A stretch of DNA of 64,000 nucleotides from Gammaproteobacteria bacterium (GCA_023475025.1 JAMCWB010000030.1:1853-65852); one strand, 5' to 3'. Numbered from the stretch's first letter, positions 16,804-40,464 are shown. Program-made: numbers and translations. Notes: generated by a model from the sequence alone, not told the origin.

Positions 16804-16880
16804 GCACCCGTAGCTCAGCTGGATAGAGTACCGCCCTCCGAAGGCGGGGGTCACAGGTTCGAATCCTGTCGGGTGCGCCA
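16804..16880 (+). tRNA. tRNA-Arg (anticodon CCG)
   Basis: Cloverleaf read by hand: acceptor GCACCCG/CGGGTGC, anticodon stem CCGCC/GGCGG with loop CTCCGAA, T-arm ACAGG-TTCGAAT-CCTGT, and an encoded CCA. Confidence 0.9.
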
Positions 16881-17288: not shown

Positions 17289-19082
17289 TTAACTTTCAAT
17301 ACTCAAAGCCCACCCCCTCCTGCCTAATGTCCGAAAGTCGCAACTCCCTGCAACCATTTGTTGATACTCGCGTGCGCCCTTAATTCCCCCGCGCAAGTAC
17401 CGATCGGATCCGCACTCAGCGCAATGAGCCTTGAATCCGGCTGGTTCCTGAAAAACAGGGCAAGCTGACCCACCGCATACAGGACAGACCTTCAATGCCC
17501 TGATCTCTTCGCTACGTTGTACCAGCTCATTCTCGAGCCGTATCGCATTGCCAGCCTTCAACACCTTATTCAGTTCGCCCAAGAGGTTTCCATCCAGCAC
17601 GTCCCTTACCTGGAGGGTTTTATTTTGTTGATCGACCCGCAGAGCAGAAGACCCCTTGGCCAGACTGAGAGCAGCAGTCGGGACTTTTATTAACGGTCGT
17701 CCATAGTTTTCCAACAGCAGTCCCTGCAAGACCCGATCAACCAATAAGCCAAATCGTTCCTCGCAGTACATATCCGAAGGGGAAAGCGGCACCCATTGCC
17801 CTTCAAAGGCGACCTGCGGCAGTTCTTGATCAAGTGCGGGCCAGGCGATGATCCGGTTGGTAGTAAGCTTCTGTTCAGAGGGGGCTTCCGCTGTCAGCCA
17901 AGGTACAACAGTCAGCAGTACCGCATCAGCGCTCACCAATTCCCACTCCAAGCCATTTTGTCGCAACGCCAGGGACCTGCCTGCCCAGTCCCCCTGGTCT
18001 TTCCCCCCTAGATACGGCTGCAGCGCTCGGCGTAAAACAAGGCCTGCGTAACGCGAATAAGCTTGAGCGAGATGCCGATTTCTTCTGAAACGCTCTTCAG
18101 CAGTTACTTTAGTTCCTGCCTGGCTGCGACCCAAAAGATCCCATAGAGCAGCCACATGCCGGTAGCTCGGATCATGGCTGAGGATATTCGTGCGATGCAA
18201 TCCGCTTTCAACCTGAGCGTTGCGGTCTACCAGCGTATACAGGCCACTTTGCTGCAACCCCCGGATTGCCTTTTGCAGGCTCTGCAGCGTGCTCAGTGAT
18301 TCATTCAAGAGCGCAGAGACTTTGCTGGTAGCACTCTGATCAAAGGTCCTACCCCATATATCACATACTGCATGGGCCAACCGATGATTGATATCGGCGG
18401 ACTCATAAAACTCCATAGCCTGGTCAAGTGTCGCCTGCAAACTACCAAGGGCCGATAGTCGATTACGCAGATGTCTGTCGATCTTGTCCAACAGCCTTGC
18501 GTATACACGGTTCTCGTAGATGCCGTAATCATCCTCACTGAAACGAGCCATTACCTTTCTTGGAATAACCCCGCTCAATGTTTGCCGCTGCCAATATTCG
18601 GAGTGGGACGCGAGGTGCACCAGCGCACCTTTTGACAACCTGCGTGCACGGGCTATATCTGTGACTTCATCCTCATAATGCATATCCAGTCGTGGTCGCT
18701 TGGAGATTCGGTGCAGATGCCCTTTGTTGAGCACCTCCCGCAACTTCTCTTCAAATGTCTGGAGATGTGCCTGATCATCTACAACTGCTGCTGGCATCAG
18801 AGGAGAAGGCAGCGTTTCCCCCTTCTGAATGTCAGCATCTATAGTGATAATTGCATTGAATAGCAGGTCGGCATTCGCAGTGTCGGCCTGTCCTGGAAGG
18901 ATGAAGGTTAGAATCTGCTTATCAAGCTGGCATCGCTGCCCACCGTCATCAACCAGTAGCCCCGAGAAGTCGGGCGTGTGACCATTCAAGGTGAGCCCTG
19001 TAGAGCCAGCCCAATAGCGCCCAGGCGCAACCTGCGGGGGCAGCGTCTTAAGCTGCGCCCCTGTCAGCCTATCCAACCACAT
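17289..19082 (-). CDS. McrC-like (DUF2357-type) partner protein with C-terminal zinc ribbon (CnuC-like)
   Basis: 597 aa with a 1-nt start/stop overlap on the McrB-like gene. DDYGIYENRVYARLL resembles the conserved ENR motif of McrC-family proteins. The C-terminal CPVCGG...CAECG is a zinc ribbon. No clear PD-(D/E)xK triad was seen by eye. Confidence 0.5.
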   Translation of the reverse strand: MWLDRLTGAQLKTLPPQVAPGRYWAGSTGLTLNGHTPDFSGLLVDDGGQRCQLDKQILTFILPGQADTANADLLFNAIITIDADIQKGETLPSPLMPAAVVDDQAHLQTFEEKLREVLNKGHLHRISKRPRLDMHYEDEVTDIARARRLSKGALVHLASHSEYWQRQTLSGVIPRKVMARFSEDDYGIYENRVYARLLDKIDRHLRNRLSALGSLQATLDQAMEFYESADINHRLAHAVCDIWGRTFDQSATSKVSALLNESLSTLQSLQKAIRGLQQSGLYTLVDRNAQVESGLHRTNILSHDPSYRHVAALWDLLGRSQAGTKVTAEERFRRNRHLAQAYSRYAGLVLRRALQPYLGGKDQGDWAGRSLALRQNGLEWELVSADAVLLTVVPWLTAEAPSEQKLTTNRIIAWPALDQELPQVAFEGQWVPLSPSDMYCEERFGLLVDRVLQGLLLENYGRPLIKVPTAALSLAKGSSALRVDQQNKTLQVRDVLDGNLLGELNKVLKAGNAIRLENELVQRSEEIRALKVCPVCGGSACPVFQEPAGFKAHCAECGSDRYLRGGIKGAREYQQMVAGSCDFRTLGRRGWALSIES

Positions 19083-21523
19083 TATCTGACATCCTCCAGA
19101 CGGCGAATATCAGCCTCCAGCAGCTGGTTGCAACTCGTTGGCTCACCGCCAAAGCCTGCATCAATCCAGAAAGTTTCCAGTGCATTCTGTACCGCTTTCA
19201 ATGCATCAAGGCTTACATCGTAACGACCGGTGACCTTGCCTTTTCGCATCACGCGCGTGGACAACAGGTGGTCCAGGGCTTCACCCTCGGACCCTCCCGC
19301 TGCCTTGATGACTGGGATGAAGCGCATTGCCTGCTTCTCAAAACGGTTCCCCCAACCCAAATCAAAATCCTTTTCCAGTAGTGTGGTCAAGGGGGCCTCG
19401 CTGAGCCATTTCAGCAAATCCCCGACCTCCTCCCCGTGCTTATTACATGCCTCATCAAAGGACTTGTTAAGTGAACTGTACGAAAAGCTTGTCGGATCGT
19501 AGCGCCTGACACCGAAGCGGTCGTCCTGCTTCGGCAGGGTCATCACATGAGCACGGTCATAGGTTTTATCGGCGAGCTCGTTAGTAGTTTCGTCATGGTT
19601 GGCAGTCCCGATAAACCAGACGTTACCCGGCACAAGTATTTTGCGCCCTTCGCGCAGCATCACCGGTGCATTAGGCATCGCCGTTTCCGCTAGACTGATC
19701 AACCTCTCGTCAGGGTTGTTCTTCTCAAGAGCGGACAAAAATTCAGCAAAATATTGCTCTGGCCGGGAGAGGTTCATCTCATCGAGCAGAATGACGTTAC
19801 AAGTATCCTTCCAGCGGGGCGTTTGAGCTTTATACAAGGCTTGCAGACAGTCCTTTTCATAAAAGCGCCGCTCGAAAGCGTTGTAATGGCCAAGCAAATC
19901 ATCACGGTCACGCCATCCTGCCTGCACAGCAATATCAGTACAGAACCCCCCCATTGCTTTAGCAAATGCTTTAGCCAGACTGGTTTTTCCTGTACCGCTG
20001 ATACCCTGAAAGACATGCAGCTGACTCATCGCCAGCCCACCGATCAGGGTACGAATATCTTCAAGACGATAAAACAGTTCAACGCTATCTTCTGCCTGGG
20101 CAATACGGTGCTGGAGCTCCTCAGCAAACTGCTCGAGCCCTGGCACAGGTTCATGCTCCATACTCGCGCGGTACTCCCGTTCCGTATCCATCAGCGACAT
20201 GGCCGGGAACGGCGTCTGGGTTTTCTGAGCGTTAGTCAGCTGATCAATACGGCTTTCAAGATCATCAATATGCACAGTCAGCGTGTTCTTGTGCTGTTCG
20301 AGTACACGTTTTTCGCGCGCTACAGCCTCAAGCTCAGTGGCAGCGACACGCCTCACGCTCAACTCACGTCTTAATTCGTCTCGCTCTGGCATAAGTGCCG
20401 CAAGATCCCGCTCAAGGTCAGCTTTACTACCACGCAGGTAATCGAGCTCTCGCTGTAGTTCGGCACTATCCGATTGTTCCAGCCGGCGTTTGAGAGAGTT
20501 ATTGTCCTGTCGCAAGTTATCGAGCTGCTCCAGAATGTCCGTCGCAGAGTGCTCACCAAGTGTCTGTTCCAACTCTCGCATACCCAAGAGTTGCTCCTTC
20601 AGCGCCTCGGTTTTCCCCCAAGCGCTGTCCAGCTGCCGCTCCAGCCTCGCCACAGCCTGCTCATGACTGGCGCGCTCCGCCTTCATTTCCAGGGTAACCC
20701 GCTGCTCCAGCTCTTGCTCTGCACCCTTGAGATCTGTCCATTCACGATCCAGCCTTCCACGGGCTCGATCCAGGTCCAGCTTGCTCTTACTTATTTCATG
20801 CTCGCGCTCATCTAGGAGCCTGACCCGCTTGGACTCCTCCTCTGAGCAGTTGAACTTGATCTCTGCCAGACGGCGCGCAGCCTCGCTCAGCTCGTCATCA
20901 AGCCTGCGCTTCTCATCTCTGAGCTCCTGCAGAATATCAGCCTGCTGTTTGAACAGCTCCTGCTGGCGCCGCTCAAGCTGACGCAGGGCCTGCTCATTCT
21001 GTTCCACAAAGCCAGCCTGGGCCTCGGCTTCACGCAGGCTCAGGGAGCGCCCAGTCTCCAAGAGTGCCGACTTCTGTTGCGCCAACTCAGCCTGTTCGGC
21101 AGACAGGGCGGCCCTTGCATCGTCATGGGTTTTTCTCTCCGCCTCGAGTGCGTCCCGCTCGATAACCAGCTTCTGCTCACGCTCCTCAATATCAGCAACC
21201 AGTCTGTTGGCTTCCTCCCAGCGACCGGAGTACTCATCCTTCAGTCGCTCCTTGAGTTTAACCAGCTCTTTACAGAATTCCGCGAAGCGCTCAATCCAAC
21301 GACCGAGCTCCGCATCCTCATCAGACTCGAATCTGTCCAGTACAACGCTCAGCCATTCCTGGTCGACAGGAATATCCATACTCATATCAAACGACTGGTA
21401 AACTTTGGAGGCACTCTCAAAAGACGCAGTCCACTTGTTATCCAACCCTGGGCGAGCCATTAAGACAGCGCCAGCCAACTGCTGGGCATTCTTGCTCGAA
21501 TTCTTCTTCGCCATTACATCCAT
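19082..21523 (-). CDS. Coiled-coil fused McrB-like AAA+ GTPase (CnuB-like)
   Basis: 813 aa. Residues about 80-440 are an E/R/L/Q-rich heptad-like coiled coil. The C-terminal AAA+ module has Walker A GISGTGKT, Walker B ILLDEMN and a McrB-type NxxD-like motif GTANHDET. Confidence 0.7.
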   Translation of the reverse strand: MDVMAKKNSSKNAQQLAGAVLMARPGLDNKWTASFESASKVYQSFDMSMDIPVDQEWLSVVLDRFESDEDAELGRWIERFAEFCKELVKLKERLKDEYSGRWEEANRLVADIEEREQKLVIERDALEAERKTHDDARAALSAEQAELAQQKSALLETGRSLSLREAEAQAGFVEQNEQALRQLERRQQELFKQQADILQELRDEKRRLDDELSEAARRLAEIKFNCSEEESKRVRLLDEREHEISKSKLDLDRARGRLDREWTDLKGAEQELEQRVTLEMKAERASHEQAVARLERQLDSAWGKTEALKEQLLGMRELEQTLGEHSATDILEQLDNLRQDNNSLKRRLEQSDSAELQRELDYLRGSKADLERDLAALMPERDELRRELSVRRVAATELEAVAREKRVLEQHKNTLTVHIDDLESRIDQLTNAQKTQTPFPAMSLMDTEREYRASMEHEPVPGLEQFAEELQHRIAQAEDSVELFYRLEDIRTLIGGLAMSQLHVFQGISGTGKTSLAKAFAKAMGGFCTDIAVQAGWRDRDDLLGHYNAFERRFYEKDCLQALYKAQTPRWKDTCNVILLDEMNLSRPEQYFAEFLSALEKNNPDERLISLAETAMPNAPVMLREGRKILVPGNVWFIGTANHDETTNELADKTYDRAHVMTLPKQDDRFGVRRYDPTSFSYSSLNKSFDEACNKHGEEVGDLLKWLSEAPLTTLLEKDFDLGWGNRFEKQAMRFIPVIKAAGGSEGEALDHLLSTRVMRKGKVTGRYDVSLDALKAVQNALETFWIDAGFGGEPTSCNQLLEADIRRLEDVR

Positions 21524-23001
21524 TCCTTAAAACATGCGGTAAAGCCCAGCGCGTACTGTATGCTGTCCAGCGCCATACGCGTCGTGAGTTGAATTGGTTC
21601 TTTCCCTGTGTATTCGCTCTGGGCGTGGCTGCTCTTGTTGCGCAGGTCGGCCACCTTCAGCAGCTTATCCAGTTGCAACTCGCTAGGACCTAGAGCCCTG
21701 AGCGGATGCCCCGGCTCATCGAGCGTACCCATTGCTGCAGCAAACAGCAGAGCCTTGAGCGAGGAAACTGGGCTGGAGCAAGCCCTGATCACCTGATCCA
21801 GACTCTGCCTTGAAAGCGCAACGCTTACCGGCCCGGTCAACGCAGGAACCGGCAGCGCAGAAAGGAGCTGTTGATTCAAACTGAAGTTGTTTTTTTTCAG
21901 CTTTGGCAACTGCCCCTCATTAGCTGGGTAAGTCCGGATCAGCCATTGCATGACCACTTCCAGCAGTTTCTGACTTTCCACCAGCGCGGCATCCAGCTCC
22001 TGCCCACTATGGTCATCCCTTAGTTTCTCGCGACGCACCAACAACGCGCCCAAATGGCGTTTGATATCTGGCTGCCGCTCTACCCAAGGATATTCAACCA
22101 GGATCTGAAACTCCGTTTGCTGTCGGAGTGCTTGCAACCACTGCTCCACGCTCTGCTCATCGGTACGTGGGATGCTTACGAGATTCTCAAGGTAAGTAAG
22201 GAGATGGGCGTTCTGCTCAACCAGCTGCAGAAATGCTTCGTTCAGCCACCAAGCGTTTTCACGCAGACCGAAGGGGTCCTTGACCGACCACAAATCCAGT
22301 CCGTCACTATCGCCAGTCACCCATACCAACACACGGGCGGATTGCGCAACATCATCCAACCGCTGCACACCCTGCAAACTGACCTGTTCAGGTAACCCGG
22401 TCCATTGGCCAAGCTGCTGGCTGGCGCTATAGTCTTCACGATAGTCACGATAAGCCCGCATCAAGGTGTCGTGGTCCAGCGCAGGCAACTCGGTGCGTGG
22501 CACTGAAAACTTGAAAGGCCTGTAGGTTTTACCTGTTCTTCGCTCCGTCAAGAACTCCGGAAAGTGGGCCAATGGGTCCACAGGCTCTATCTGGCTCAAC
22601 TGGACAACCAGCCGTGGCCAGAAGCGGCCATCTACTGCATCCTGCAGCAAATAACCGGATTTCATGTTGGTCTCAGCCACGTCCTCATCATCCAGCAAGC
22701 TCTCGCCTTTAGCTGTAAGCGCATCGGCGCTATCTACAAGCCATCCGTTGCTGACCCCTTGCGCAAGTATCAACTTGATCAGGTTAAGGTGGAGCCCGGT
22801 CAGAGCCGCCATATCTTCCGGGCGCGCGGTTCTTGCGCGCACCAGCCCCAGCACGGCGCGCTGTAACAGATTCAACTGCGACCGCTTTGGATCGGGATAC
22901 AGAACACGATGAACCAGTACGGGCCAGAGCAGCGACCGTTTCTTACCAAACGGTTTGGGGCCAAATGAGAGATACATACCAGACTCAGCGAAGACTGCCA
23001 T
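21514..23001 (-). CDS. wHTH-like / HEPN-motif protein (predicted RNase)
   Basis: Track ORF 21514..23085. The start was moved to ATG 23001, which is preceded by GGAGGTGAGC. The C-terminal ADLRNKSSHAQ is an Rx4H HEPN signature. The rest has no recognisable motif. Confidence 0.55.
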   Translation of the reverse strand: MAVFAESGMYLSFGPKPFGKKRSLLWPVLVHRVLYPDPKRSQLNLLQRAVLGLVRARTARPEDMAALTGLHLNLIKLILAQGVSNGWLVDSADALTAKGESLLDDEDVAETNMKSGYLLQDAVDGRFWPRLVVQLSQIEPVDPLAHFPEFLTERRTGKTYRPFKFSVPRTELPALDHDTLMRAYRDYREDYSASQQLGQWTGLPEQVSLQGVQRLDDVAQSARVLVWVTGDSDGLDLWSVKDPFGLRENAWWLNEAFLQLVEQNAHLLTYLENLVSIPRTDEQSVEQWLQALRQQTEFQILVEYPWVERQPDIKRHLGALLVRREKLRDDHSGQELDAALVESQKLLEVVMQWLIRTYPANEGQLPKLKKNNFSLNQQLLSALPVPALTGPVSVALSRQSLDQVIRACSSPVSSLKALLFAAAMGTLDEPGHPLRALGPSELQLDKLLKVADLRNKSSHAQSEYTGKEPIQLTTRMALDSIQYALGFTACFKEWM

Positions 23002-26000
23002 GCTCACCTCCACACATCTGGTGGAACGCAGCCAGAGCGGGTACCGCCTCTTGTGCCTCCGGGGCGGTAGCCAGCGCTGAGTCACCGACGCAGATCAACA
23101 TTTGCCTCTGACGGCTCATGGCAACGTTCATACGGTTGGGCAGCCTCAAGAACCCAAATTGCCGGTTGAGCTGCTTTTCCCGCTCGGCATCCCCCTCACT
23201 TCCCTGCCCCGGTGTTACAGGTTTATAGGTTCGAACACATGACAACAGCACAACATCAAACTCCTTGCCCTGGAACGCGTCGACAGAGCCAACCCGTAGC
23301 CGCTCTTCAGAGTTGACGGAGCCGTCCCCGCGCACCTTTCTTGTCCATTTGAAGATCTCATGGGGTTCGTAAGCTCCGTTGCGCAGCACCATCAGCGGTA
23401 CGCCATCGATGCGCTGCTCAGAGAGCTTCTCCATGATCAACTCGCGCTGTGCTGCATAGAAGGTTATGACACCCACCGATAGACTATCGCCACCAGCCTG
23501 CAGCAACCTCACTACCTCCTCGGCAATGCGCAGCGCCTCTACCTCCCTCACGCGACTTGTGCCTGAGCGCATCTCCTTACCCTGCCCCGCAGGCACATCT
23601 ATCCACTGGCAGACGCGGTCACGATAATGGCTAGCCAAAGGGCCAAGTCCGGCAAGGAAAGTCTCAGAAAAAACAAAATCCGCGGCGTCACGACCAGAAC
23701 GAATTCGCCCCAGCCCTTGGGATTCGTAAAATTGAGTACTTATAAAGTCACCAAGTAATGGGTGCATCCGGAACTGGGTGTCCAACATAACCACGCGACG
23801 GATATTGTCCTGCCTTTCAAGATCTTGCAGCTTGATACGCATTCGCTCGAACAGGCTCGAGCGAAAGGCCGCCAACTGCAGCTCGGTAAGCTGGTGCTCC
23901 GCCTGCAGCTGGCCCTCGATATCTGGCTCCAGCATGTGTGGTAACTGTCTGTCATCCCCGACCAAGACTATTCGGCGCTTTGCCATGGCCATAGGCACAA
24001 ACAGATCCAACGGGTTGGCACGGGCAGCCTCATCAATAACCACGGTATCAAATTCGATATCCGTGCTATCCAGATTCGATACTGATTTGAGGTTTGCCAT
24101 CTGCCTTCCTGCTGCCTGCTGGCAGGTAGCACCAACCACCATTGAATACTCATGCACGACCGCCTGTGCGGCGGCCCGGTCAATCGCCAGGCTATCCGCC
24201 AGCTGCTCCAGCACCCCGGCTACCCCCTGCTTACGCTGGCGCAGCCGGGTCTCCAGGTGTCGTTCAATCTCATCCAGCAGTGCCACCCCCTCTGGATCTG
24301 CCTGCTGCCTCAAGCTCACTGGTCGATAATCTGGCATATAAAGATCAAGTAACCGAGGCTTCCAGGCAGCCAGGTTTTGCAGCGTGGAGTCTTGAGTCTC
24401 TGTGCTATCCGCCGCCTCTTCCAGCACAGCAAACAGATCCGGATTGGTGTCTATGCCTTGACGCTTCAACCAACTGAGCAGGTCCCATGCGCGGTCCGGG
24501 CCATCGTCGTTAAATGAGGTCTCATCGACGCGAAGCGCTCTAACCCTTCTCAGAACCTGAACATTATGACCATCAACCGAAGTAGTAGGCGCCTGCCTTT
24601 GCAGTTGCTCGATGTACTCCTCGACCTGACTTTCAAGCCGCGGTGGCATTACCAAGCCACTTACCTCCAGCTCGCGCAACCCGTTCAAAATGCTCACGAA
24701 GCTCTCAGCCTGACTCCCGGGCGAAGCACCGGCAATTCTTGCCAAAGCCAGTTGGGTCGACAGATTCCGGACAAGCTCCAGTTCAGGATATTTGCCGTAC
24801 TGCTCGATCACCTTACCCTGCAGATGCTCGACCTGACGATCCAGCCATGGATCAATCAGGGAATCTTCTTCCTGCGCTCCCCGCTTACCACCCACTCGAG
24901 CCCCGGGCAGGCCAAACACATCGCTACGATCCAACGCGTTATCGACGGCGTCATGCTGGAAACTGCTGATCAGCACTTGCGCAGCAATATTATTCTCTTC
25001 AGCCTCTTCCGCGAGGCGGCGCTGCAGGGCTGCTATGACCTGAGTCTTACCGGTTCCTGGGGGGCCAATTATGATGGCCATATCAGGCGTGTTCAGTGCC
25101 GTATCCAACGCCAGGATCTGCTTCTCAGTGGGCTTGCCTCCCTTGAAGGTTTCCAATGCATACGGCGTCAGCCCCTTGATTGGACGGCGCCTGGAAGCGG
25201 GCACAGCCACACCTTCCAGCAACCACTTCAACTGGGGTAGTCGTTTCCCGGAATCAATCGACTGTTTTGCTGCCAGACGACGTTTACCCACCGTCCGCTG
25301 GCCGGCCAGCGACAGATAGATCCAGCCCTCAGGCTTTCTAGGGCGAATACTGCGGCGATTTGAAACTGGCTTGAAAACAACGCAGTTCTGCTCAAAGCGA
25401 ATTGTGCCCCGCGGATTATCCTGCTCAGCCTTCACTTCATCCGTAGTCAGTTCCTCAGCCCAGTCAGGGCGATCAACGCTGAGATCGACCTGCGTGCCTG
25501 CAGCAAGGTCCAGGTTGCGCCAACGTGAACGAAACTCTCTGTAATCGTCCAATGAGGCTGGCGTCAGTCGCCAGACGTTTTCGCGGCCCTCTTCATGCCC
25601 TTCCCATTCCACAAAGCGCAGGGCACGCAAGGTTTCAGCCTGAGTCAGCGCGGTTTGCCACTCCCTATCGTTGTAGAGATTCCATAGCTCCAGATAACTG
25701 GCACTGTCGCGCAACGCTGCATCAAGCGCCGCCCGATAACCAGGGCTGGCAAGAACAGCGGCAACCGACGCATCACGAAACGCAAACTGACCCAGGAGCA
25801 ATGAAAAGGCACCATCCCGGCGCGTATGACGGGTAATTCGCTTGATCAGTAACCCTTGATCCGCGCCCTGTTGCACATCTGCCCGCCAGCCCTTGCCCAC
25901 CAGCTGGAAAGCGCCACGGGATGTGCTGTTACTGAATCGTGCCACTGTGAGCCAGTCGCCCTCAGCTTGGTCGCGCACAAGAAAAGTCTCAGCCAACCAA

Positions 26001-26374
26001 TCGCAGGCCAGCTCAATACGCTGGTCGGGGATTTCCTGCTTGCTGTAGAGGTCTTCCACTATCAGCTCATCAACTCCGAGCTCAAGCTCCATGGCAGAAA
26101 TCTCAACTGGCGCACAGTACTGCACCAAAAGCTTGTCAGCCTGTTTGCTAGTGAGCAGCCAGCGTGTCTGATCCCTTAGAACCAAGCGGCTGAACAGGCC
26201 ATGATCAGCCCTCGCACAACTGACTCGAATCCGTTCATCTTTCTGCACAGCCAGCCATTCATCTTGATAGGCCTGCAGAAGCATCGCCTGCCCCACTTGA
26301 AAGCCGTCTGTTGATTCATCTGAGCTGAGAACCAGGACATCCTCGGACAGCAGGGGAAAGTGTTTAAAGTCCAT
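22985..26374 (-). CDS. Upf1/DNA2-like SF1B helicase with about 430-aa unknown N-terminal region (CnuH-like)
   Basis: 1129 aa. Helicase motifs are IIGPPGTGKT, VVIDEAARA, VLVGDDRQLP, VDAFQGKEFDVVLLS and NVAMSRQRQMLICVGD. Confidence 0.8.
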   Translation of the reverse strand: MDFKHFPLLSEDVLVLSSDESTDGFQVGQAMLLQAYQDEWLAVQKDERIRVSCARADHGLFSRLVLRDQTRWLLTSKQADKLLVQYCAPVEISAMELELGVDELIVEDLYSKQEIPDQRIELACDWLAETFLVRDQAEGDWLTVARFSNSTSRGAFQLVGKGWRADVQQGADQGLLIKRITRHTRRDGAFSLLLGQFAFRDASVAAVLASPGYRAALDAALRDSASYLELWNLYNDREWQTALTQAETLRALRFVEWEGHEEGRENVWRLTPASLDDYREFRSRWRNLDLAAGTQVDLSVDRPDWAEELTTDEVKAEQDNPRGTIRFEQNCVVFKPVSNRRSIRPRKPEGWIYLSLAGQRTVGKRRLAAKQSIDSGKRLPQLKWLLEGVAVPASRRRPIKGLTPYALETFKGGKPTEKQILALDTALNTPDMAIIIGPPGTGKTQVIAALQRRLAEEAEENNIAAQVLISSFQHDAVDNALDRSDVFGLPGARVGGKRGAQEEDSLIDPWLDRQVEHLQGKVIEQYGKYPELELVRNLSTQLALARIAGASPGSQAESFVSILNGLRELEVSGLVMPPRLESQVEEYIEQLQRQAPTTSVDGHNVQVLRRVRALRVDETSFNDDGPDRAWDLLSWLKRQGIDTNPDLFAVLEEAADSTETQDSTLQNLAAWKPRLLDLYMPDYRPVSLRQQADPEGVALLDEIERHLETRLRQRKQGVAGVLEQLADSLAIDRAAAQAVVHEYSMVVGATCQQAAGRQMANLKSVSNLDSTDIEFDTVVIDEAARANPLDLFVPMAMAKRRIVLVGDDRQLPHMLEPDIEGQLQAEHQLTELQLAAFRSSLFERMRIKLQDLERQDNIRRVVMLDTQFRMHPLLGDFISTQFYESQGLGRIRSGRDAADFVFSETFLAGLGPLASHYRDRVCQWIDVPAGQGKEMRSGTSRVREVEALRIAEEVVRLLQAGGDSLSVGVITFYAAQRELIMEKLSEQRIDGVPLMVLRNGAYEPHEIFKWTRKVRGDGSVNSEERLRVGSVDAFQGKEFDVVLLSCVRTYKPVTPGQGSEGDAEREKQLNRQFGFLRLPNRMNVAMSRQRQMLICVGDSALATAPEAQEAVPALAAFHQMCGGEHGSLR

Positions 26375-26380
26375 ATGCCA

Positions 26381-27790
26381 TCACCACCTGAACTGCCAGA
26401 AGATGTGCGAAGCGTCTAGATCGCCCACGTGAACCCGATAAGGTTCCGCATGCTGGCCACGCAAACTGTGTTTCAGTCCTTGATAGACCTCGAGGGCCTT
26501 TTTGGTCTGCCCGCGCTGGAGAGTCAGCCGACCTTCCAGCAGAGGGTAAATACCCAACCCTTTTTCTGTGAACTCAACACGGATATGGTCGGCGGGCCAA
26601 CGGTCGTAACTGAAGGTTGGCATCAACCGCTTCAGCTCCAGATCTGCCCCAAGTTGCAACCAGACCTTGCGGCCAGTTGCCATTTCAACGTCGTCTGCCG
26701 CTTCCTGGCTGTCTTCATCTTTTAGCTGAACGACAAACTCCTCGAACAACACCGCAGTGCTGTCGAGGGGGGTATCGCAAAAGAAGCAGCACTGGTCATC
26801 GAGCGAGTTAATTTCCTGCGGCACCAGGGTGCTGCCGCCACACCCATTGCAGGCAATCAGGCGCTCATCGATTTCGCTGAGCGCTTCCAGCCACTCAGCC
26901 ATACCCGGCCGCTCCGCCGGGTTATCTCGCCCTTGCTCAAAACAACGAGCAAAAAGCGCAGGCAGTTTGCTGTGCTCGATGAGCTGGATTGGCAGATTTA
27001 TAAAGCAGGCATTGGCATCATCGTGCGGGTCATGGATCCATGGTCGCTCGCCACGCAGTGCCGCATCTTCTTCCTCTGGCTCGCAATCACTGATCAAGTC
27101 ACCCTTGAACGGGTGATTGTGGGTCAGCAACTGATAGGCGATAACAGCAAAGCTCCAGGCATCGGTGAGACTGGACAAAAGGGAGTCACCGCGAACGACC
27201 TCGGGCGCTCCATAATCTACGGTGTGCAATGACAGGCCACTATGAGACTCCAGACTGATATTGTCGCAATCGATCAGCCATGTTTCGGCGTGGGCTGAAT
27301 CGTCTGATACAAATATATTGCTGGGTGACAGGTCGCCATACAGCATGCCTCGGGCGTGCAGTTGATTAAGCGTTCTGGCCAACTGACAGAGAATGCGCAC
27401 ACGACGACGAAGCCCACCCTGGCGCAGGTAATCAGCAGATGCTTCTTCGCCTGCCTCTACATAGCTCTCGAGCAATCGTTGCAAAGGCTCCAACCCATCC
27501 ATCAACTCCATAACATAACCACAGCGCGGCTCTGCAAGTGGCGATAGCGGACGAGCCAGTTTCAGACCGGCAAGATCCTGACGAATCAGCCACGCAATGT
27601 GTTTCTGCCAGCGCCGGCGAGCCTGAGGGTCTTTATTTGTGAACCCCTTGATAAGAACCTGTGGGTACTGGGTGTGGTAGACAATACCTTGACCACCACG
27701 GCTGAGCTCTTCGCACAGCTCGTAGATTGAACCCTTGGTGTCTTGCACCATGCGCTTGGGTCGCGCGCTTGTCTTTGCGGTCATCTGCAT
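26381..27790 (-). CDS. Ser/Thr protein kinase with C-terminal zinc ribbon (TerY-P kinase)
   Basis: Gly-rich loop GGQGIVY, catalytic loop YGDLSPSN, DCD in place of DFG, and YGAPE. A CNGCGG...CCFFC motif follows. TGATG coupling to the PP2C gene. Confidence 0.85.
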   Translation of the reverse strand: MQMTAKTSARPKRMVQDTKGSIYELCEELSRGGQGIVYHTQYPQVLIKGFTNKDPQARRRWQKHIAWLIRQDLAGLKLARPLSPLAEPRCGYVMELMDGLEPLQRLLESYVEAGEEASADYLRQGGLRRRVRILCQLARTLNQLHARGMLYGDLSPSNIFVSDDSAHAETWLIDCDNISLESHSGLSLHTVDYGAPEVVRGDSLLSSLTDAWSFAVIAYQLLTHNHPFKGDLISDCEPEEEDAALRGERPWIHDPHDDANACFINLPIQLIEHSKLPALFARCFEQGRDNPAERPGMAEWLEALSEIDERLIACNGCGGSTLVPQEINSLDDQCCFFCDTPLDSTAVLFEEFVVQLKDEDSQEAADDVEMATGRKVWLQLGADLELKRLMPTFSYDRWPADHIRVEFTEKGLGIYPLLEGRLTLQRGQTKKALEVYQGLKHSLRGQHAEPYRVHVGDLDASHIFWQFRW

Positions 27791-28482
27791 CAGTCCATTC
27801 TGAAAATGCCGGCTATGGTCTTGTCATCACCGTGTCGGGGTGTCGACCATCCGTTCAGTTCACGCGTCAGCCATTGACGCATCTGGCGTTTACTTGAGCG
27901 CCGCTGGCGCTGGTAAATCGCCTCGAAAAAAGACTCAAGATGCTCAGGAATAAGATCGTCGGAAATACCATCCGTCATCAGCAGCACACCATCGCCCGGG
28001 CGACCGAGTTCGATGTCAGTACTGTTGATCGTCTGGAGATCAGCCTGAGCCAGCGTTAGTGTCTGATTGCCGAACCCCTGGCGCTGCTCGGTGATTACGC
28101 GGAACTCACCATGACTTCTTACCAGGAGCAAACCGTCACCTATCTGCCCAGCTACGCCCTTTCCACAAGCATCGACCAGAGCCCAGATACAGGTCGCCTC
28201 ATACGCGCTGTGCCTGGCCCCGAAACGGTTCAGCCAGGCATCCCGCAGAGCGCAACCGACCTTATCATGCTTCAGGTCTGACCCCTGCCGAGCCAACTGT
28301 CTGAACAGCCGAACAGCTCTAGCTGAACCATAATGGCTTAGCGGCCGACTACCCAGCCCATCGGCTACGGCGATACACCAGCCACCTTTCAATCCGCGGA
28401 TACAGAGCGCATCCTGATTCGGAGCACCCTCCTGCACATGTGCAGGCCCGCGAACCGAGGAGCCTCCTGCTGAAAGTCGCAT
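27790..28482 (-). CDS. PP2C-family protein phosphatase (TerY-P phosphatase)
   Basis: NQDAL..., VADGLGS and LLMTDGISDDL metal-binding motifs. TGATG coupling on both sides. Confidence 0.85.
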   Translation of the reverse strand: MRLSAGGSSVRGPAHVQEGAPNQDALCIRGLKGGWCIAVADGLGSRPLSHYGSARAVRLFRQLARQGSDLKHDKVGCALRDAWLNRFGARHSAYEATCIWALVDACGKGVAGQIGDGLLLVRSHGEFRVITEQRQGFGNQTLTLAQADLQTINSTDIELGRPGDGVLLMTDGISDDLIPEHLESFFEAIYQRQRRSSKRQMRQWLTRELNGWSTPRHGDDKTIAGIFRMD

Positions 28483-29168
28483 CAGAACTCCCAGTCTTGA
28501 TCATCACCTTTTTGAATCTGCAGGGGTGTGGACTGATTGGGTGTAGCTGACTGACTGCGAGCGCTGACGCTCATGGTCACCGCACGGAAGAAGCGATGAA
28601 TGTCTGCGGCATTTTCTGCGCGAAACAGCGGAGCTTCGGGGTCATTGGCAAAGGTGCTGAGCATGTCCTCATCCGCATCGGCACCGATCGCCATGGCAAA
28701 GCGGGTTGCCTTGGCGCTCCGTTCACCCTTGGCCAGACGCTGAAACGGCCCCTGCCACTCATCGTTCGGGTAGCCATCAGAGACCAGTACAACAACCGGT
28801 CTATAGGCGCGAGAGGGAACGCTGTCCTTGTCTTCAATCATGTCGCTCAGCAGCGTCAGTGCGCCACCCAACGGAGTCATACCTTCAGCGGTCAGTGGCG
28901 TGAAACCGCTCAACTGATGCGCTGGCGTCAGGGGCAAGCTGACGGAAGCTTGATTGCCACCAAAAGTAATCACGCTGACCTGAATCTCGGCGCGCAAACG
29001 ACTTTCACCAGCAAAACTTTGGATCATGTCCTTGAGCCCCTTGTTAAGGGCTTCGATCTTGCCATCGACGGACATGCTGCCACTGGTATCGGCCAACACG
29101 ATGATCGGCAGAGGTCGGGCGGTTTGAACCTGGAATTTCTTCAACTCAGACATCAATGTCTTCCTCAA
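28482..29168 (-). CDS. TerY-like von Willebrand factor A protein
   Basis: MIDAS DTSGS, downstream GMTPLG and VLVSDGYPND, 228 aa. Confidence 0.85.
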   Translation of the reverse strand: MRKTLMSELKKFQVQTARPLPIIVLADTSGSMSVDGKIEALNKGLKDMIQSFAGESRLRAEIQVSVITFGGNQASVSLPLTPAHQLSGFTPLTAEGMTPLGGALTLLSDMIEDKDSVPSRAYRPVVVLVSDGYPNDEWQGPFQRLAKGERSAKATRFAMAIGADADEDMLSTFANDPEAPLFRAENAADIHRFFRAVTMSVSARSQSATPNQSTPLQIQKGDDQDWEF

Positions 29169-29252: not shown

Positions 29253-30149
29253 TTAGCGCATTACCTTGTTCCAGTCGATGCCATAGCCAGCGGCGTCCAG
29301 CTCACGAGCAAGCGCTTGTTTCCAGCCGCCACTTTTATCCATGTTTTCCCACACCACTCCGGCAAAATCGCTCGGAATCTCAAGCTCCCCACTTTTCAGT
29401 GCACAGACCCGCTCCCGCCCCAGTCGACCTATGAAATAGCCCAACTCCAGCAATACGTTCTGTCTTGCTCTGAGTTCCGGGGTACCACCCTTTACGCACC
29501 CTTCGTCATCCGGCGTTAGCAACACAACAGCGAACCCGACATCACTGTGGGCGACCACCTTTTCGATGATGGTGCGCCCCTGGTTGGCTTGTTCATGCAG
29601 GATGATGGCTTCCAGGCCCATGCGCTCAAGGAACCGCGCAACCGACTCGCGTGCACCATCATCGTGGCCGTGGACGATAAAAACCTTGCTTGAAAAGGGG
29701 AGCTTAAGCGTAGTACCCGTATCGCCACGAGAATTCACATAGCTCTTATAGTCGCGCACAAAAGGAATAATAAGCTGGCCAGTGAGGGTATGAATTCCAG
29801 CTATGACCTTGTTCCCGGAATGAAAATAATGGAGGCAAAAATTGATCGCATAATCAGGATCTGCAGCCAGCTTTTGTATTAAAAGCAGCGTCAAACCTAA
29901 TGATGCTTTATGATCATCCGGCCAAGCCAGCTTGGCGCTTCCCATCATGCCAGTTGCGGCTTTTCCACTTTCCTCAAGGAAAGCCTCCAAATCGACGCCA
30001 GCAGTAAGCTCGTCATTAAAAGGCGCAAGATCAGAATGCTTAAGCAGCTGGGCCAGCTTGCGCAAGGGACGCTCGAAAGTCTGCATCTGAGAATTTTGCA
30101 GATCCAGTACGGCATGGTTGATTTCAGTAAAAAGATCCTGACCCATCAC
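29253..30149 (-). CDS. Two-domain protein with C-terminal bacterial TIR-like nucleotide-binding domain
   Basis: The C-terminal half reads KVFIVHGHDDGARESVARFLE..VVLLTPDDEG..RARQNVLLELGYFIGRLGRERVC..PSDFAGVV. This matches the TIR-like family seen in Cap12/PycTIR effectors. The N-terminal 150 aa are unrecognised. Confidence 0.7.
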   Translation of the reverse strand: MMGQDLFTEINHAVLDLQNSQMQTFERPLRKLAQLLKHSDLAPFNDELTAGVDLEAFLEESGKAATGMMGSAKLAWPDDHKASLGLTLLLIQKLAADPDYAINFCLHYFHSGNKVIAGIHTLTGQLIIPFVRDYKSYVNSRGDTGTTLKLPFSSKVFIVHGHDDGARESVARFLERMGLEAIILHEQANQGRTIIEKVVAHSDVGFAVVLLTPDDEGCVKGGTPELRARQNVLLELGYFIGRLGRERVCALKSGELEIPSDFAGVVWENMDKSGGWKQALARELDAAGYGIDWNKVMR

Positions 30150-30430
30150 TGACCTCCTTCTGATTGCAATCTGGCTTCTGCTGCTTTTTGCAGGATCTGC
30201 TCCCGATATTTTTCCTTCATCTGAATAACTAACGGCCCGACAATCGAATTGGACGCATATTCCGTAACCCGTAGATCAATAGTCTGGCTAATCTGATTGA
30301 TCGCTGACTCAATACTGGAAGGGTCATAAGGGTTAAATTTTACAACCCCAAGTTCACCATCCAACTCGGAGAGAGCACGCTGAGCGTCCTCGAGCTGTTT
30401 TTGCAGCTTATCAAAACCTTTGATTTTCAT
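30146..30430 (-). CDS. Small helical protein, unknown function
   Basis: Track ORF 30146..30448 (TTG). ATG 30430 is preferred because of AGGAGG 6 nt upstream. The stop overlaps the TIR-like start by 4 nt. Confidence 0.6.
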   Translation of the reverse strand: MKIKGFDKLQKQLEDAQRALSELDGELGVVKFNPYDPSSIESAINQISQTIDLRVTEYASNSIVGPLVIQMKEKYREQILQKAAEARLQSEGGQ

Positions 30431-30503
30431 TGAATGCCTCCTGGCCAATTGATGTTCGACTCACTTCTCACCTTCCTAAGTAAAGGCGAGACACTGAGTT
30501 CTA

Positions 30504-30520
30504 AGCGAACATCGTGCCAA
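30504..30520 (-). promoter_or_regulatory. Sigma-54 (-24/-12) promoter P2
   Basis: The minus strand reads TTGGCACGATGTTCGCT, with correct GG-N10-GC spacing. It is about 60 nt upstream of the small-protein ATG and matches P1 at 16 of 17 positions. Confidence 0.65.
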
Positions 30521-30646: not shown

Positions 30647-31561
30647 CTACTCCTCAAAATAATCCGAGTCCAACCGTTTCACCTCGTAGGTCGCTATCGT
30701 GGAGACTCCAACCCCGGTGTCGATCATCAGGCTCACCAGCTTCTCGCCGTCAATCAGCACGATACGGGTATCAATGAGCGAGGCATACTCTATCGCTTCT
30801 GAGCTGAAGCTGGATGTAGTCAGGAAAACCCCTTTCTTGGCTCTCTGGCCCTGGAGCGCGCCGGCGAATTTCTGTATTTCGGGGCGGCCTACGGTACCTT
30901 CCCAACGCTTGGCCTGCAGGTAGATGACATCCAGGCCGAGCCGATCTTCCTTGATAACGCCATCAATACCGCCGTCGCCGGAGCGGCCGAGCGTCTGTCC
31001 TGCGTCCTTGCGCGAGCCGCCATAGCCGAGCCTTACCAGCAGCTCGACGACCAGGCGCTCGAAGAATGCTGGGGACGCAGCCTTGATTCTGGTTATGAGT
31101 TCTTCCTTTAGCTCCTCACGGACGGTCTGATAACCAAACTCCATATGTTCCGATGGTGTCAGTGTGTCCGTTTCGATGGAGCCCACCGGGGTGGCTGCTG
31201 CAGGCTTTTCGGGTTTGCTCCCCGACTGGAACGCTGTGTACTCATCAAACTGGCGCAGGTAGGACATATTTATTGGAGCTGCATCCTGCGCCAGCGCCTC
31301 CAGCCCTCGCTGGGTTATCCGATAGCGGGCTCGGCTGGGCGATTCAATCAGGCCGGCACCTTTGAGATGGGTTTTTGCCCAGCCTATGCGGTTATCAAAC
31401 AGCCGTGCGTAGCCACTGGGCAGCATTTCGGCCAGCTCGTCCTCGGTCAGCTGAAAATACCCGGCAAGATACTCGTTGGTTTCACGATTAGTCCGCACCG
31501 CTCCGTCAGCGAGGTGCTCCAGCAGAGGGCGCATGATTGTCTGGAAGTCGGGTATTGCCAT
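30647..31561 (-). CDS. mrr: Mrr-family type IV restriction endonuclease
   Basis: N-terminal Mrr_N-like wHTH and C-terminal catalytic core GDGGIDGVI...LQAKRW. Confidence 0.85.
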   Translation of the reverse strand: MAIPDFQTIMRPLLEHLADGAVRTNRETNEYLAGYFQLTEDELAEMLPSGYARLFDNRIGWAKTHLKGAGLIESPSRARYRITQRGLEALAQDAAPINMSYLRQFDEYTAFQSGSKPEKPAAATPVGSIETDTLTPSEHMEFGYQTVREELKEELITRIKAASPAFFERLVVELLVRLGYGGSRKDAGQTLGRSGDGGIDGVIKEDRLGLDVIYLQAKRWEGTVGRPEIQKFAGALQGQRAKKGVFLTTSSFSSEAIEYASLIDTRIVLIDGEKLVSLMIDTGVGVSTIATYEVKRLDSDYFEE

Positions 31562-31616
31562 GTTGTCGGTGTTCCTTTCCTGGATGGCCTTAGTTGGCTT
31601 ATTGACCGAAGTTAGT

Positions 31617-32777
31617 CTACAGCTGGCCGGAGAAGGCTTGTTGGCTCAACGAGCTGGCTAATCTCTCCTGTGCTGCGAGAGCATCCAGAAGACGACCTCG
31701 GTGCGACTCAAAAGCTTTATAACGATCAAGGAAAGCTATTTGCTGCGCGTGCGGGGGCAAGGCCACTGGTGTTTTTGCAATCAACCCAACATTCAATGTG
31801 GGCTGGGCTACTGCACGAGTTTCCCGCTTGAAATAGCCTTGAACTACCGGACTCTGTAGGTAGCGATAAACATACTCGCGGTTTACGCCTTCACGAATAG
31901 GTATCCGCGTGACTGCTCGCGCAATATTCCATCCAATCATTGCATCGCTGGCCCAACCGACACGACCAATAGTGCCTACGCAAGCGATCAGAATTTCATT
32001 TCCTTTCAGCTTTGATTTCCTATGCTTCGAATCAATGCTTGCCGACACTCGCCTTAGCTGGGCGACGTCAGGAGTAACATCAGAAAGATCTCCAGACCTT
32101 ACCAATGGAACACCGTCCTCTTCGTGATCACCCGGCTGAACAACGCCGTAGTTCAATTTGTCATTGGGATCAATGAGCGTAGAAAGCTCAACGACATTCC
32201 ACCCCTTCGGATTCGTCACCGGATCACCAAACATCTCCAGAAACACGGCGCGGAGGAAGTCGTCGGCGAGCTGGATGGCTTGCTGGCGTTTGCGGCGAAT
32301 GGCGTCGGCCTTGTCGAGGATGGCGGCGATGCGCTTTTGTTCGGGCAGGGGTGGGAGGGGGATTTCTACTGCTTCAAGCTTGCCTTTAGTAATGTGCTTA
32401 AGGCCAACCCCGCCATGAGCCTGATCAATAATCAGGTCCAGCTTAGAATTTATTGCATATCGAAGATAATTTTTATCGATATGACGCTCATCAATATCAA
32501 CCCTAAAAATATGTTGATTTAGAAAGCCCTTGCCCCGATTCCAGAAGAATGCACCAAAGGAAGTCCCTGGAGTGCCAGACCAAGAGAAAAGCAAGTCCCC
32601 CGGATCCACGTGGAATCTTTTTTCCACCTCAAAATCGCAATAATTGAAAGGTTTAGTTTCATCATTGAGATTTTGGATTCGAACAATAGGAGTGCCCGAG
32701 GCCGACCACTCCTCCGGCTTAAATGCTCTCCCGTTCTGAAGGCTGCATACACTTCCAAAGGGAACGAGATTCATCAC
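31617..32777 (-). CDS. hsdS: Type I R-M specificity subunit
   Basis: 386 aa in a two-TRD layout with conserved LPPLPEQKRIAAILD and LPPHAQQIAFLD spacer helices. 4-nt overlap with hsdM. Confidence 0.88.
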   Translation of the reverse strand: MMNLVPFGSVCSLQNGRAFKPEEWSASGTPIVRIQNLNDETKPFNYCDFEVEKRFHVDPGDLLFSWSGTPGTSFGAFFWNRGKGFLNQHIFRVDIDERHIDKNYLRYAINSKLDLIIDQAHGGVGLKHITKGKLEAVEIPLPPLPEQKRIAAILDKADAIRRKRQQAIQLADDFLRAVFLEMFGDPVTNPKGWNVVELSTLIDPNDKLNYGVVQPGDHEEDGVPLVRSGDLSDVTPDVAQLRRVSASIDSKHRKSKLKGNEILIACVGTIGRVGWASDAMIGWNIARAVTRIPIREGVNREYVYRYLQSPVVQGYFKRETRAVAQPTLNVGLIAKTPVALPPHAQQIAFLDRYKAFESHRGRLLDALAAQERLASSLSQQAFSGQL

Positions 32778-34378: not shown

Positions 34379-34385
34379 GGGTGTT

Positions 34386-38846: not shown

Positions 38847-38863
38847 AGCGAAGATCGTGCCAA
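38847..38863 (-). promoter_or_regulatory. Sigma-54 (-24/-12) promoter P1
   Basis: The minus strand reads TTGGCACGATCTTCGCT, with GG-N10-GC spacing. It begins 3 nt after the activator's stop codon and ends 12 nt before the hsdR ATG. Confidence 0.65.
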
Positions 38864-38865
38864 CA

Positions 38866-40350
38866 CTATTCAATGCCGTACTTCTCCATCCAGTTAGTCA
38901 GCGTTTGCTGGCTTTTCAGACCCAGTAATTTGGCTGCTCGGGTCTTGTTACCTGCTGTCTGCTGCAGTGCCTGCTCTAGGTAAGGGCGCACAAATTCGCC
39001 AAGTAGCGCTTGTATATCAATGCCTTGAGAGACATCGAGCCCAGTTGACTTGTCCATCTTAGCAGGCATATCAAACAACGCACCGGCCATATCCTGTTGT
39101 TCGATAGTATCACCTTGGCACCAAAGTGCAGCCCGCACTAGTGTCGCTTGCAGTTCACGAACATTTCCTGGCCACGCATGCTGAAGTACAAGTTTTTTTC
39201 CTTCAGCAGAAATTTTCTTACCGGCCAGAGCGGTATCCTGCCTGCCGATTACCGCCAGCAGCGCTTCGCACAGCAGCAACAAATCACCCTCCCGCTCCCG
39301 CAAAGGCGGCAGATGCAGTACGCCCACTGCAACCCGGTAAAATAGATCTTCACGAAAGCAACCCGCTGCAACATCCGCCATCAGATTGCGGTGGGTCGCA
39401 GCAACCAGCCGGACATCCACACGTTGCTCTACTGACCCGCCCACTGGCGTACACACCCCTTCCTGCAACACTCTCAGTAGACGGACCTGAACGTCGGCCG
39501 CCAGCTCACCAAACTCGTCAAGGAAAAGGGTGCCACCGTCAGCCTGCTGGAAAACCCCAAGCCGGTCAGCAATGGCACCGGTAAAAGCCCCCTTTTTGTG
39601 ACCAAACAATGTTGAGTCGATCAACTCGGAAGGAATGGCGCCACAGTTCACCGCTACAAAGGGCTTGGCTGCTCGCGGCCCAGCATTATGGATCGCCCTG
39701 GCAAACAGCTCTTTGCCGGTACCGGTTTCACCATAGATCAGCACAGGTACCAGCTTTTGCGCTAGCACCTCTGCCTGCTGCTTAAGCAACAGCATGGTTT
39801 TATTTCGCGTGATGATATTGTCGAAGGCCGCATTAACCGGTGCCGCCTGCATGAGCATGTTGTTCAAACTGGCGGCACTGATTTCTGCGGCAGCCGGCAC
39901 ATACTCCGCAGCGATCTCAAAGGGTATGTCGATCTGCTGAACGCCCTGCTCCAGCGAGGATTGGTAATAGAGGGCGGGATAGCGCGTCTTGCCCAGCAGA
40001 ATCCATACTGCCTGCATCGCAGGCGTACCCGGACTGAGCAAAATGGCCAGAGGCTCACCGCTGCTCTGCAGCCTGCGCAAATGACGCTCTGCAGCCTGAT
40101 AAATCTCGGCAAAGTTGACCGGTGAGCTCAGGGGCTCGTGGTAAACATTCAGCGGCGTTTCGGTATTCTCCGCCAGCCAGGCGCGGTAGCTCTCCAGCTG
40201 CTCTGGCGGATAGGAACAAAGCAGTTCAGCCCTGGCAAAGCTGCCAGCATGCAATGTAGAAAGCACAGGGCCCGGCAGACCGCCAGCCGGCGCTTTGAGA
40301 TCATTCCCGCCAATCCAGCTCACCAGAATCGGCAACTGCTTTTTCACCAT
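38866..40350 (-). CDS. RtcR-like sigma-54-dependent activator (CARF - AAA+ - Fis HTH)
   Basis: The N-terminal CARF-type signature LLSPGTPAMQAVWILLGKTRYPALYYQSS parallels E. coli RtcR HITTGTHVAQICWFLL. The AAA+ module has GETGTGKE and GAFTGA. The C-terminal HTH reads NKTRAAKLLGLKSQQTL. ATG 40350 is preferred over TTG 40362. Confidence 0.8.
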   Translation of the reverse strand: MVKKQLPILVSWIGGNDLKAPAGGLPGPVLSTLHAGSFARAELLCSYPPEQLESYRAWLAENTETPLNVYHEPLSSPVNFAEIYQAAERHLRRLQSSGEPLAILLSPGTPAMQAVWILLGKTRYPALYYQSSLEQGVQQIDIPFEIAAEYVPAAAEISAASLNNMLMQAAPVNAAFDNIITRNKTMLLLKQQAEVLAQKLVPVLIYGETGTGKELFARAIHNAGPRAAKPFVAVNCGAIPSELIDSTLFGHKKGAFTGAIADRLGVFQQADGGTLFLDEFGELAADVQVRLLRVLQEGVCTPVGGSVEQRVDVRLVAATHRNLMADVAAGCFREDLFYRVAVGVLHLPPLREREGDLLLLCEALLAVIGRQDTALAGKKISAEGKKLVLQHAWPGNVRELQATLVRAALWCQGDTIEQQDMAGALFDMPAKMDKSTGLDVSQGIDIQALLGEFVRPYLEQALQQTAGNKTRAAKLLGLKSQQTLTNWMEKYGIE

Positions 40351-40464
40351 CCATGCCCCCAAACAGCCATTCTTGTCTGTCCACTACACAAGCCAACAGA
40401 ACTGCTTAGTGCTCAGCTCACTACAACCTGAAAAGCTCAGCCATCACAACGCAGTTTATGCCAT

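Follow-up and report, generated by a model that had tools for sequence, protein, structure and literature searches.

We analysed a 64,000-nucleotide (nt) stretch of DNA from a Gammaproteobacteria bacterium (GCA_023475025.1 JAMCWB010000030.1:1853-65852; hereafter the window, with coordinates counted from its first letter) and focused on a minus-strand gene at 21514..23001. The gene encodes a 495-residue protein with a winged helix-turn-helix (wHTH) domain near its N terminus and a predicted HEPN ribonuclease (RNase) domain at its C terminus. The best explanation, to which we assign a probability of about 0.8, is that it is cnuE, encoding the effector subunit, and predicted RNase, of a Type II CoCoNuT (coiled-coil nuclease tandem) defence system. 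This assignment draws on the open reading frame (ORF) itself, on 120 homologues of about 496 residues, on the operon position in 53 related loci, and on the published description of CnuE. The ORF ending at 21514 can be read from a GTG at 23085 (523 residues) or from an ATG at 23001 (495 residues). We take the ATG at 23001 to be the true cnuE start, as judged from the sequence, because a Shine-Dalgarno GGAGG, read directly, lies 5 nt upstream of it (23007..23011, minus strand), homologues begin with MA(A/V)F and are about 496 residues long, and the resulting 17-nt overlap with the helicase stop recurs in related loci at 38% and 46% identity. The GTG start was rejected: it would add a 28-residue extension that is missing from homologues and falls within the helicase coding region. 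The correction of the start from 23085 to 23001, proposed in an earlier note on this DNA, therefore stands.

Seven genes follow one another on the minus strand in the order VWA, PP2C, kinase, helicase, cnuE, cnuB, and cnuC. The first three form a TerY-P triad: a VWA protein (28482-29168; Pfam VWA, 1.2e-12), a PP2C phosphatase (27790-28482; Pfam PP2C_2, 3.1e-37), and a Ser/Thr kinase with a C-terminal Cys-rich ribbon (26381-27790; Pfam Pkinase, 8.2e-14). The helicase gene, cnuH (22985..26374), encodes a 1,129-residue UPF1-like superfamily 1 (SF1) protein with a long N-terminal extension and a large insertion after Walker A; it matched AAA_11 (4.2e-30, over residues 417-812 for a 257-position profile), AAA_12 (5.1e-36), and the MkoA model of PADLOC (2.6e-81). 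Downstream of cnuE, cnuB (19082..21523) encodes an 813-residue protein that joins a coiled coil to a McrB-like AAA+ GTPase, with matches to AAA_5 (5e-6) and PADLOC PDC-M26A (1.4e-38), matches of the SMC/Rad50 coiled-coil type over residues 167-451, and a weak match to McrB. Its translation reads GTANHDE, an NxD followed by E, and NxD is the CoCoNuT-clade signature of McrB-like GTPases (PMC11090510). The last gene, cnuC (17289..19082), encodes a 597-residue McrC-like protein with a borderline DUF2357 match (4.7e-5; 23.2 bits against a cut-off of 23.3) and a C-terminal zinc ribbon (CPVC...CAEC; Lar-type, 9.7e-4). The Pfam scan of CnuC returned no Hsp70 match, which favours Type II over Type III-A.

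The reading frames are tightly packed. In addition to the overlap of cnuE with the helicase gene, the end of cnuE and the beginning of cnuB have 10 nt in common (21514-21523), cnuB and cnuC share one base (19082), and the PP2C gene shares a boundary base with both the VWA gene (28482) and the kinase gene (27790). These overlaps suggest translational coupling through the whole cassette. In 53 related loci that we retrieved, each of the seven proteins was placed by tblastn. Their genes were collinear on one strand in 53/53 loci, as far as each contig extends, over a range of CnuE identity from 73% to 22%. The CnuE gene always lay directly after CnuH and directly before CnuB and then CnuC, with the VWA-PP2C-kinase triad always in front. 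The placement of the gene between a helicase and a McrBC pair, as the earlier note had it, describes a strictly conserved operon in which an SF1 helicase gene precedes cnuE and genes for a McrB/McrC-like pair follow it.

The same arrangement is that of the Type II CoCoNuT system described by Bell, Sahakyan, Makarova, Wolf, and Koonin (eLife 2024, PMC11090510). [quoted passage not shown] The TerY-P triad is frequently associated, and the cnuHE frames often overlap the start of cnuBC (PMC11090510). At the locus studied here we found an elongated wHTH, a single RxxxxH domain, CnuH upstream, an NxD CnuB, a DUF2357/zinc-ribbon CnuC, and TerY-P. The window protein is an ordinary orthologue of a family published in 2024, whose architecture, operon, and predicted role were already known; a 99%-identical protein is already present in ENA. 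The protein had been called unassigned in the earlier note, a label that does not survive the published description of CnuE (PMC11090510). The function proposed there, that of the RNA-cleaving arm of a helicase/McrBC system, equals the prediction published for Type II CnuE (PMC11090510).

AlphaFold2 modelled full-length CnuE with a mean pLDDT (predicted local distance difference test) score of 83.5. The wHTH spans residues ~45-112 (22666..22869, minus strand), with helices at 45-55, 61-68, 72-84, and 97-112; it is the "elongated wHTH" of CnuE, common to MkoB N termini. The N-terminal ~110 residues of the window protein matched Pfam PF24409 (wHTH-PRTase_assc) at E = 0.0026, below threshold, and the same family was matched by 36/36 homologues (best E = 9.5e-10). 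The PADLOC MkoB model aligned to the CnuE N terminus over profile positions 11-123 of 610 (E = 2.4e-6). When the full model was compared with the PDB by Foldseek, MarR-family winged helices were recovered over 70-85 residues (probability ~1.0, E ~0.3), and nothing was matched beyond the wHTH. A winged helix in the N-terminal segment, as first noticed from the sequence, is borne out by both the PF24409 and the MarR-like matches.

That MarR-family repressors head the Foldseek results for the full model raises the question of whether CnuE is chiefly a MarR-like DNA-binding regulator of the operon, with the C-terminal domain as a sensor. We consider this very unlikely. The matches are short (~70-85 residues) and weak (E ~0.3), the wHTH is of the PF24409/MkoB N-terminal type, which occurs fused to nucleases and not in stand-alone repressors, cnuE sits in mid-operon with translational overlaps on both sides, and a dedicated RtcR-like regulator is present in the locus.

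The middle of the protein, residues ~113-332 (22006..22665, minus strand), is an alpha/beta and helical linker in the AlphaFold2 secondary structure and gave no Pfam or NCBIfam match; coiled coils between the wHTH and the effector domain have been described in CnuE (Bell et al. 2024, PMC11090510). Residues ~333-495 (21517..22005, minus strand) form the C-terminal all-helical domain, the predicted HEPN RNase domain, which is supported by the AlphaFold2 model, by matches of homologues to PF18735, and by invariant residues. Modelled separately, residues 275-495 were all-alpha, with a pLDDT of 90.6 and a predicted template modelling score (pTM) of 0.88.

Near the C terminus, ADLRNKSSHAQ occupies residues 451-461 of the 495-residue form (21619-21651). 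Within it, RNKSSH (residues 454-459; 21625..21642, minus strand) provides the R-N-x-x-x-H motif that the earlier note had reported and is the predicted catalytic R-phi-x3-H; the R454 codon is at 21640-21642 and the H459 codon at 21625-21627, with H459 lying 36 residues from the C terminus. HEPN domains are defined by R-x4-6-H, typically with a polar residue (N/D/H) after the arginine (Anantharaman et al. 2013, PMC3710099), a definition that the form seen here, with phi = N, fits. Taken alone, the motif would be weak evidence, because shuffles of the CnuE protein contained a bare Rx4H in 45% and RNx3H in 1.4%; its conservation, judged at the level of sequence, is strong evidence. A database search recovered 120 homologues, nearly all of about 496 residues, with hosts that were mostly Pseudomonas, Aeromonas, Marinobacter, Marinomonas, and other Gammaproteobacteria. 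When 36 of the 120 were aligned (36-82% identity), R454, N455, and H459 were among just 38 invariant columns, as were E348, S414-L415-K416, and H432-P433. A profile hidden Markov model (HMM) of the C-terminal domain, scanned against 1.84 billion representatives, returned 147 clusters; among the 272 proteins collected, R[N/D]x3H was present in 256/278 domain matches, and most exceptions were fragments or Rx5H variants. Conservation in homologues, the check that the earlier note had asked for, accordingly came out in favour of the motif.

The predicted topology also agrees with a HEPN domain. In the AlphaFold2 model, with secondary structure assigned by DSSP, a helix at 444-458 is followed by a loop (pLDDT <50 at 459-464) and then by a helix at 474-489, and the domain-only model agrees. 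In both models, the motif sits where helix 444-458 ends and the loop leading into the last helix begins, the position at which HEPN domains carry it (PMC3710099). The invariant acidic residue E348 lies upstream, within a long helix at 333-357, in a context that is not Ex3[KR]; from the model, we infer that this helix may correspond to HEPN helix-2. A helical insert separates the E348 helix from the motif helix in the CnuE model, and inserts at such a place are common in HEPN domains (PMC3710099).

Profile comparisons point in the same direction. PF18735 (HEPN_RiboL-PSP; gathering score, 28.4 bits) was the sole Pfam family that repeatedly matched the C-terminal domain, in 15/36 homologues; one homologue (P0095) scored above the gathering score at 29.3 bits, a second (P0085) reached 28.0 bits, and a third (P0090) fell just below. 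Consensus sequences from three family HMMs also had PF18735 as their best match (E = 1.6e-4 to 0.038), and some homologues carry the database names "DUF4145" or "Apea-like HEPN." A Pfam scan of ten distant representatives found the wHTH and no HEPN family, and a word-indexed homology search that started from the C-terminal alignment recovered nothing but fragments of the family itself.

Several results weigh against a HEPN RNase. The window protein itself had no Pfam HEPN match at E <= 0.1. In the comparison of folds, which the earlier note had named as its other check, Foldseek of the C-terminal model against the PDB and BFVD gave no match at E <= 0.001, and the best matches that contain a HEPN domain were the Csm6 structure 6tug (E = 3.7; TMq, 0.35) and 1wwp (E = 5.7). 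Family HMM profiles had zero matches among PDB sequences at E <= 10, and alignment by hhalign to the DUF4145 (HEPN-clan) N-terminal domain of the neighbouring HsdR was not significant. A literature search found no biochemical study of any CnuE, and for no CnuE does the literature report RNase activity, dimerisation, contact with CnuH, or a phenotype of a HEPN mutant. A 2026 preprint on the Type II CoCoNuT named Obs leaves the mechanism open, describes no HEPN mutant, and does not dissect obsE (bioRxiv 10.64898/2026.04.06.716636). Taken together, the motif, topology, and profile evidence make assignment of the C-terminal domain to HEPN well supported, and comparison of folds does not demonstrate it. 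We predict that the domain is a metal-independent endoribonuclease. Where the motif is intact, HEPN domains act as metal-independent RNases whose products end in 2',3'-cyclic phosphates, and both R and H have been essential in the cases examined (PMC3710099).

The absence of a significant structural match to solved HEPN RNases, together with profile matches to HEPN that are near threshold at best, would also be expected if the domain were a HEPN-derived or HEPN-like module that no longer cuts RNA and that serves as an RNA-binding or dimerisation scaffold. Non-catalytic HEPN families do exist (PMC3710099), and cleavage could then fall, for example, to CnuC or to the RelE-like domain that has been reported in CnuH (PMC11090510). 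We regard such a loss of activity as improbable. The R, the polar N, and the H are invariant across 36-82% identity and the motif is kept in 256/278 domain matches, whereas inactive HEPN domains typically lose it (PMC3710099). In addition, the nuclease of Type II CnuC is reported to be inactivated, so that the HEPN domain is the only recognisable nuclease left (PMC11090510).

If CnuE is an active HEPN RNase, its operon suggests how it could be deployed. Because each chain carries one HEPN domain, CnuE would dimerise, with two copies pairing into a composite active site. The wHTH may dock CnuE onto CnuH, as Bell et al. suggested from multimer models (PMC11090510), and ATP-driven translocation of CnuH along RNA would feed substrate to the CnuE nuclease. 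CnuBC, whose McrC-type nuclease is reported to be inactivated in Type II, may contribute GTP-dependent assembly or target recognition via coiled-coil contacts. Firing of the system would be controlled post-translationally by the TerY-P kinase and phosphatase and transcriptionally by the RtcR-like sigma-54 activator. Phage RNA would be cut as a result, and possibly host RNA too, with dormancy as the consequence.

How far such cleavage is selective bears on a further possibility, namely, that the CnuE nuclease is active and the system acts purely by abortive infection, degrading host and phage RNA indiscriminately once activated instead of selectively restricting foreign RNA. This is a serious contender, if one that we hold to be somewhat less than an even bet. 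Many HEPN effectors are promiscuous, including Csm6, Cas13 with its collateral activity, and toxin HEPNs, and a back-up role in programmed cell death or dormancy was proposed by Bell et al. (PMC11090510). The helicase, the SmpB-like module, and the McrB-type specificity module suggest targeting instead, and the accessible part of the Obs preprint reports protection and presents no growth-arrest data (bioRxiv 10.64898/2026.04.06.716636).

A more specific form of control can be read from the model. The loop that begins at the catalytic histidine, H459-A-Q-S-E-Y-T-G-K, is predicted with pLDDT <50 and has the family consensus SHAxSxxTGK; it is conserved in the group at 44-82% identity, and the Type II clade that is most distant has a loop with 7 fewer residues. 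Conceivably, the TerY-P kinase and PP2C phosphatase gate CnuE directly by phosphorylation and dephosphorylation of this Ser/Thr/Tyr-rich disordered loop, making it a phospho-switched HEPN nuclease, an idea that we put forward as a long shot.

The CoCoNuT cassette lies at the end of a co-directional array of ~23 kb. At its head is a gene for an RtcR-like sigma-54 enhancer-binding protein (38866..40362, minus strand; NCBIfam RtcR, 9.3e-95, below the equivalog cut-off; Sigma54_activat, 2.4e-64), followed by a Type I restriction-modification (RM) module (hsdR, a YhcG-like gene, hsdM, and hsdS), Mrr, a TIR protein, TerY-P, and CoCoNuT last. The VWA gene has an RtcR-like gene directly upstream in several related loci. 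CARF/RtcR-CoCoNuT superoperons were presented in Figure 8 of Bell et al. (PMC11090510), and the wider locus matches that description.

Two sigma-54-type -24/-12 motifs were found on the minus strand within the array. The first, TGGCACGATCTTCGC (38848-38862), falls within the 30 nt that separate the RtcR-like gene from hsdR, and the second, the near-identical TGGCACGATGTTCGC (30505-30519), lies between mrr and the block of small ORF, TIR, TerY-P, and CoCoNuT genes. Across the window, motifs of this type were not more numerous than expected by chance (8 versus 8.9 expected). In 10/43 related loci, the only plus-strand match to TGGCA[CT]N5T[TC]GC in the locus was upstream of the VWA gene, at 38-74 nt in six loci and at ~260 or 570 nt in five others, mostly with an adjacent RtcR-like gene. 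The positions of these motifs suggest putative RtcR-like/sigma-54 control of the superoperon, with two entry points.

Other genes of the array also encode defence-related domains. HsdR (35440-38835, minus strand) carries an N-terminal DUF4145 domain of the HEPN clan (38521-38751; 23.6 bits against a cut-off of 23.1), in which LRIQGNDAAH can be read; it is a second HEPN-type module within the array. A YhcG/DUF1016 PD-(D/E)xK gene (34386-35489, minus strand) sits inside the Type I RM module, with hsdR on one side and hsdM on the other, and an Mrr-type Type IV endonuclease gene (30647-31561, minus strand) lies within the same part of the array (30647-35489). The TIR protein (29253-30149, minus strand) is of the CAP12/Pycsar type (Pfam, 4e-39; PADLOC PDC-S35, 1.4e-71). 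It is preceded, with a 4-nt overlap, by an unassigned 100-residue helical ORF (30146-30448, minus strand), and the pair is inserted directly upstream of TerY-P; a TIR homologue was absent from 53/53 related loci. A tRNA-Arg(CCG) gene (16804-16880, plus strand) and a tyrosine integrase gene (40892-42292, plus strand) bracket a defence block of ~24 kb, in which GC content is 55.3%, versus 59.4% in the left flank. A search elsewhere in the window for direct repeats of this tRNA gene, which might mark an island boundary, gave none with a length of at least 14 nt.

The locus adds little as a discovery: CnuE has been in the literature since 2024, and P. aeruginosa was later shown to be defended against RNA phages by a Type II CoCoNuT. 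What the locus offers is a clean, intact example with seven full-length genes, an RtcR-like regulator, and sigma-54-type promoter motifs. If a catalytic HEPN domain is required for defence, this would bear on the central claim that this McrBC-type branch restricts RNA rather than DNA. Overall, what the earlier note saw in the sequence is confirmed and its interpretation is supported, and the finding was already known.

We compared CnuE and its operon with known systems. With HEPN RNases that have solved structures or biochemistry (Csm6/Csx1, Cas13, RNase L KEN, PrrC/RloC, and PF18735), the C-terminal domain shares R-phi-x3-H at the helix-3/loop junction, an all-helical make-up, and an upstream acidic residue, and dimeric active sites are expected for CnuE as well. 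It differs in having no significant sequence or Foldseek similarity to any solved member, in a large helical insert that parts the putative helix-2 from helix-3, and in being coupled to a helicase and a McrBC-like GTPase and not to CARF or CRISPR RNA (crRNA).

Mokosh type I follows the same logic of an RNA-type SF1 helicase combined with a wHTH-nuclease. The effector in MkoB is a phospholipase D (PLD) nuclease, and Mokosh is not known to have a McrBC-like pair. In matches to PADLOC models (PDLC03920 and PDLC03922), the helicase corresponds to MkoA (2.6e-81), the separate kinase to the N-terminal kinase part of MkoA (6.9e-11), and the first ~130 residues of CnuE to the MkoB N terminus (2.4e-6). 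On the strength of these matches, we liken CnuH-CnuE to the Mokosh type I pair and suggest, by analogy, that the two pairs may work alike. The MkoB match ends at position 123 of the 610-position profile, and CnuE instead finishes with a predicted HEPN domain. Membership in MkoB itself was rejected: Pfam and NCBIfam scans of the window protein found no PLD family.

Type III-A CnuE has in common with the window protein the wHTH, a homologous first HEPN domain with R[ND]x3H, and the operon position. It differs in its length of ~730-745 residues, in a second HEPN domain with RxH, and in a CnuC with Hsp70-like and HEAT domains, whereas the window protein has a single such domain in 495 residues. 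Four distant relatives of ~730-745 residues (P0203, P0232, P0257, and P0272) carry R-D-x3-H in the first domain and R-G-H in a second, HEPN-like domain. Such two-domain relatives (loci L037-L053) come from Myxococcota, Alphaproteobacteria, Planctomycetota, and others, and in the group at 22-28% identity the gap from the cnuE start to the cnuB start, ~1.9-2.5 kb, fits proteins of ~740 residues with two domains. R-G-H in the second domain of these relatives is the published Type III-A feature, which identifies the window protein as the single-HEPN Type II form. One HEPN domain, a length of 495 residues, and a CnuC with a zinc ribbon and no Hsp70 rule out Type III-A.

Agreement is closest with Type II CoCoNuT. 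The preprint cited above describes Obs (Obangsin) as a seven-gene Type II CoCoNuT of P. aeruginosa PMM16 running from obsA to obsG/cnuC; transposon insertions in obsC and obsG abolished the phenotype, and the cassette cloned into PAO1 protected against PP7 and LeviOr01, both RNA phages, and the DNA phage MPK7 (bioRxiv 10.64898/2026.04.06.716636). The locus in the window is likewise a seven-gene Type II CoCoNuT, and obsE is the counterpart of the window protein by position alone. Shared with published Type II CnuE are the wHTH, one C-terminal HEPN domain with RxxxxH, the position after CnuH, and a frame that overlaps the start of cnuBC. The wider system likewise shares TerY-P upstream, an RtcR-like gene heading a co-directional superoperon with Type I RM, and gammaproteobacterial hosts. 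Nothing differs in kind; the additions in the window are a TIR gene, a small ORF, and Mrr, which come between its RM module and the cassette.

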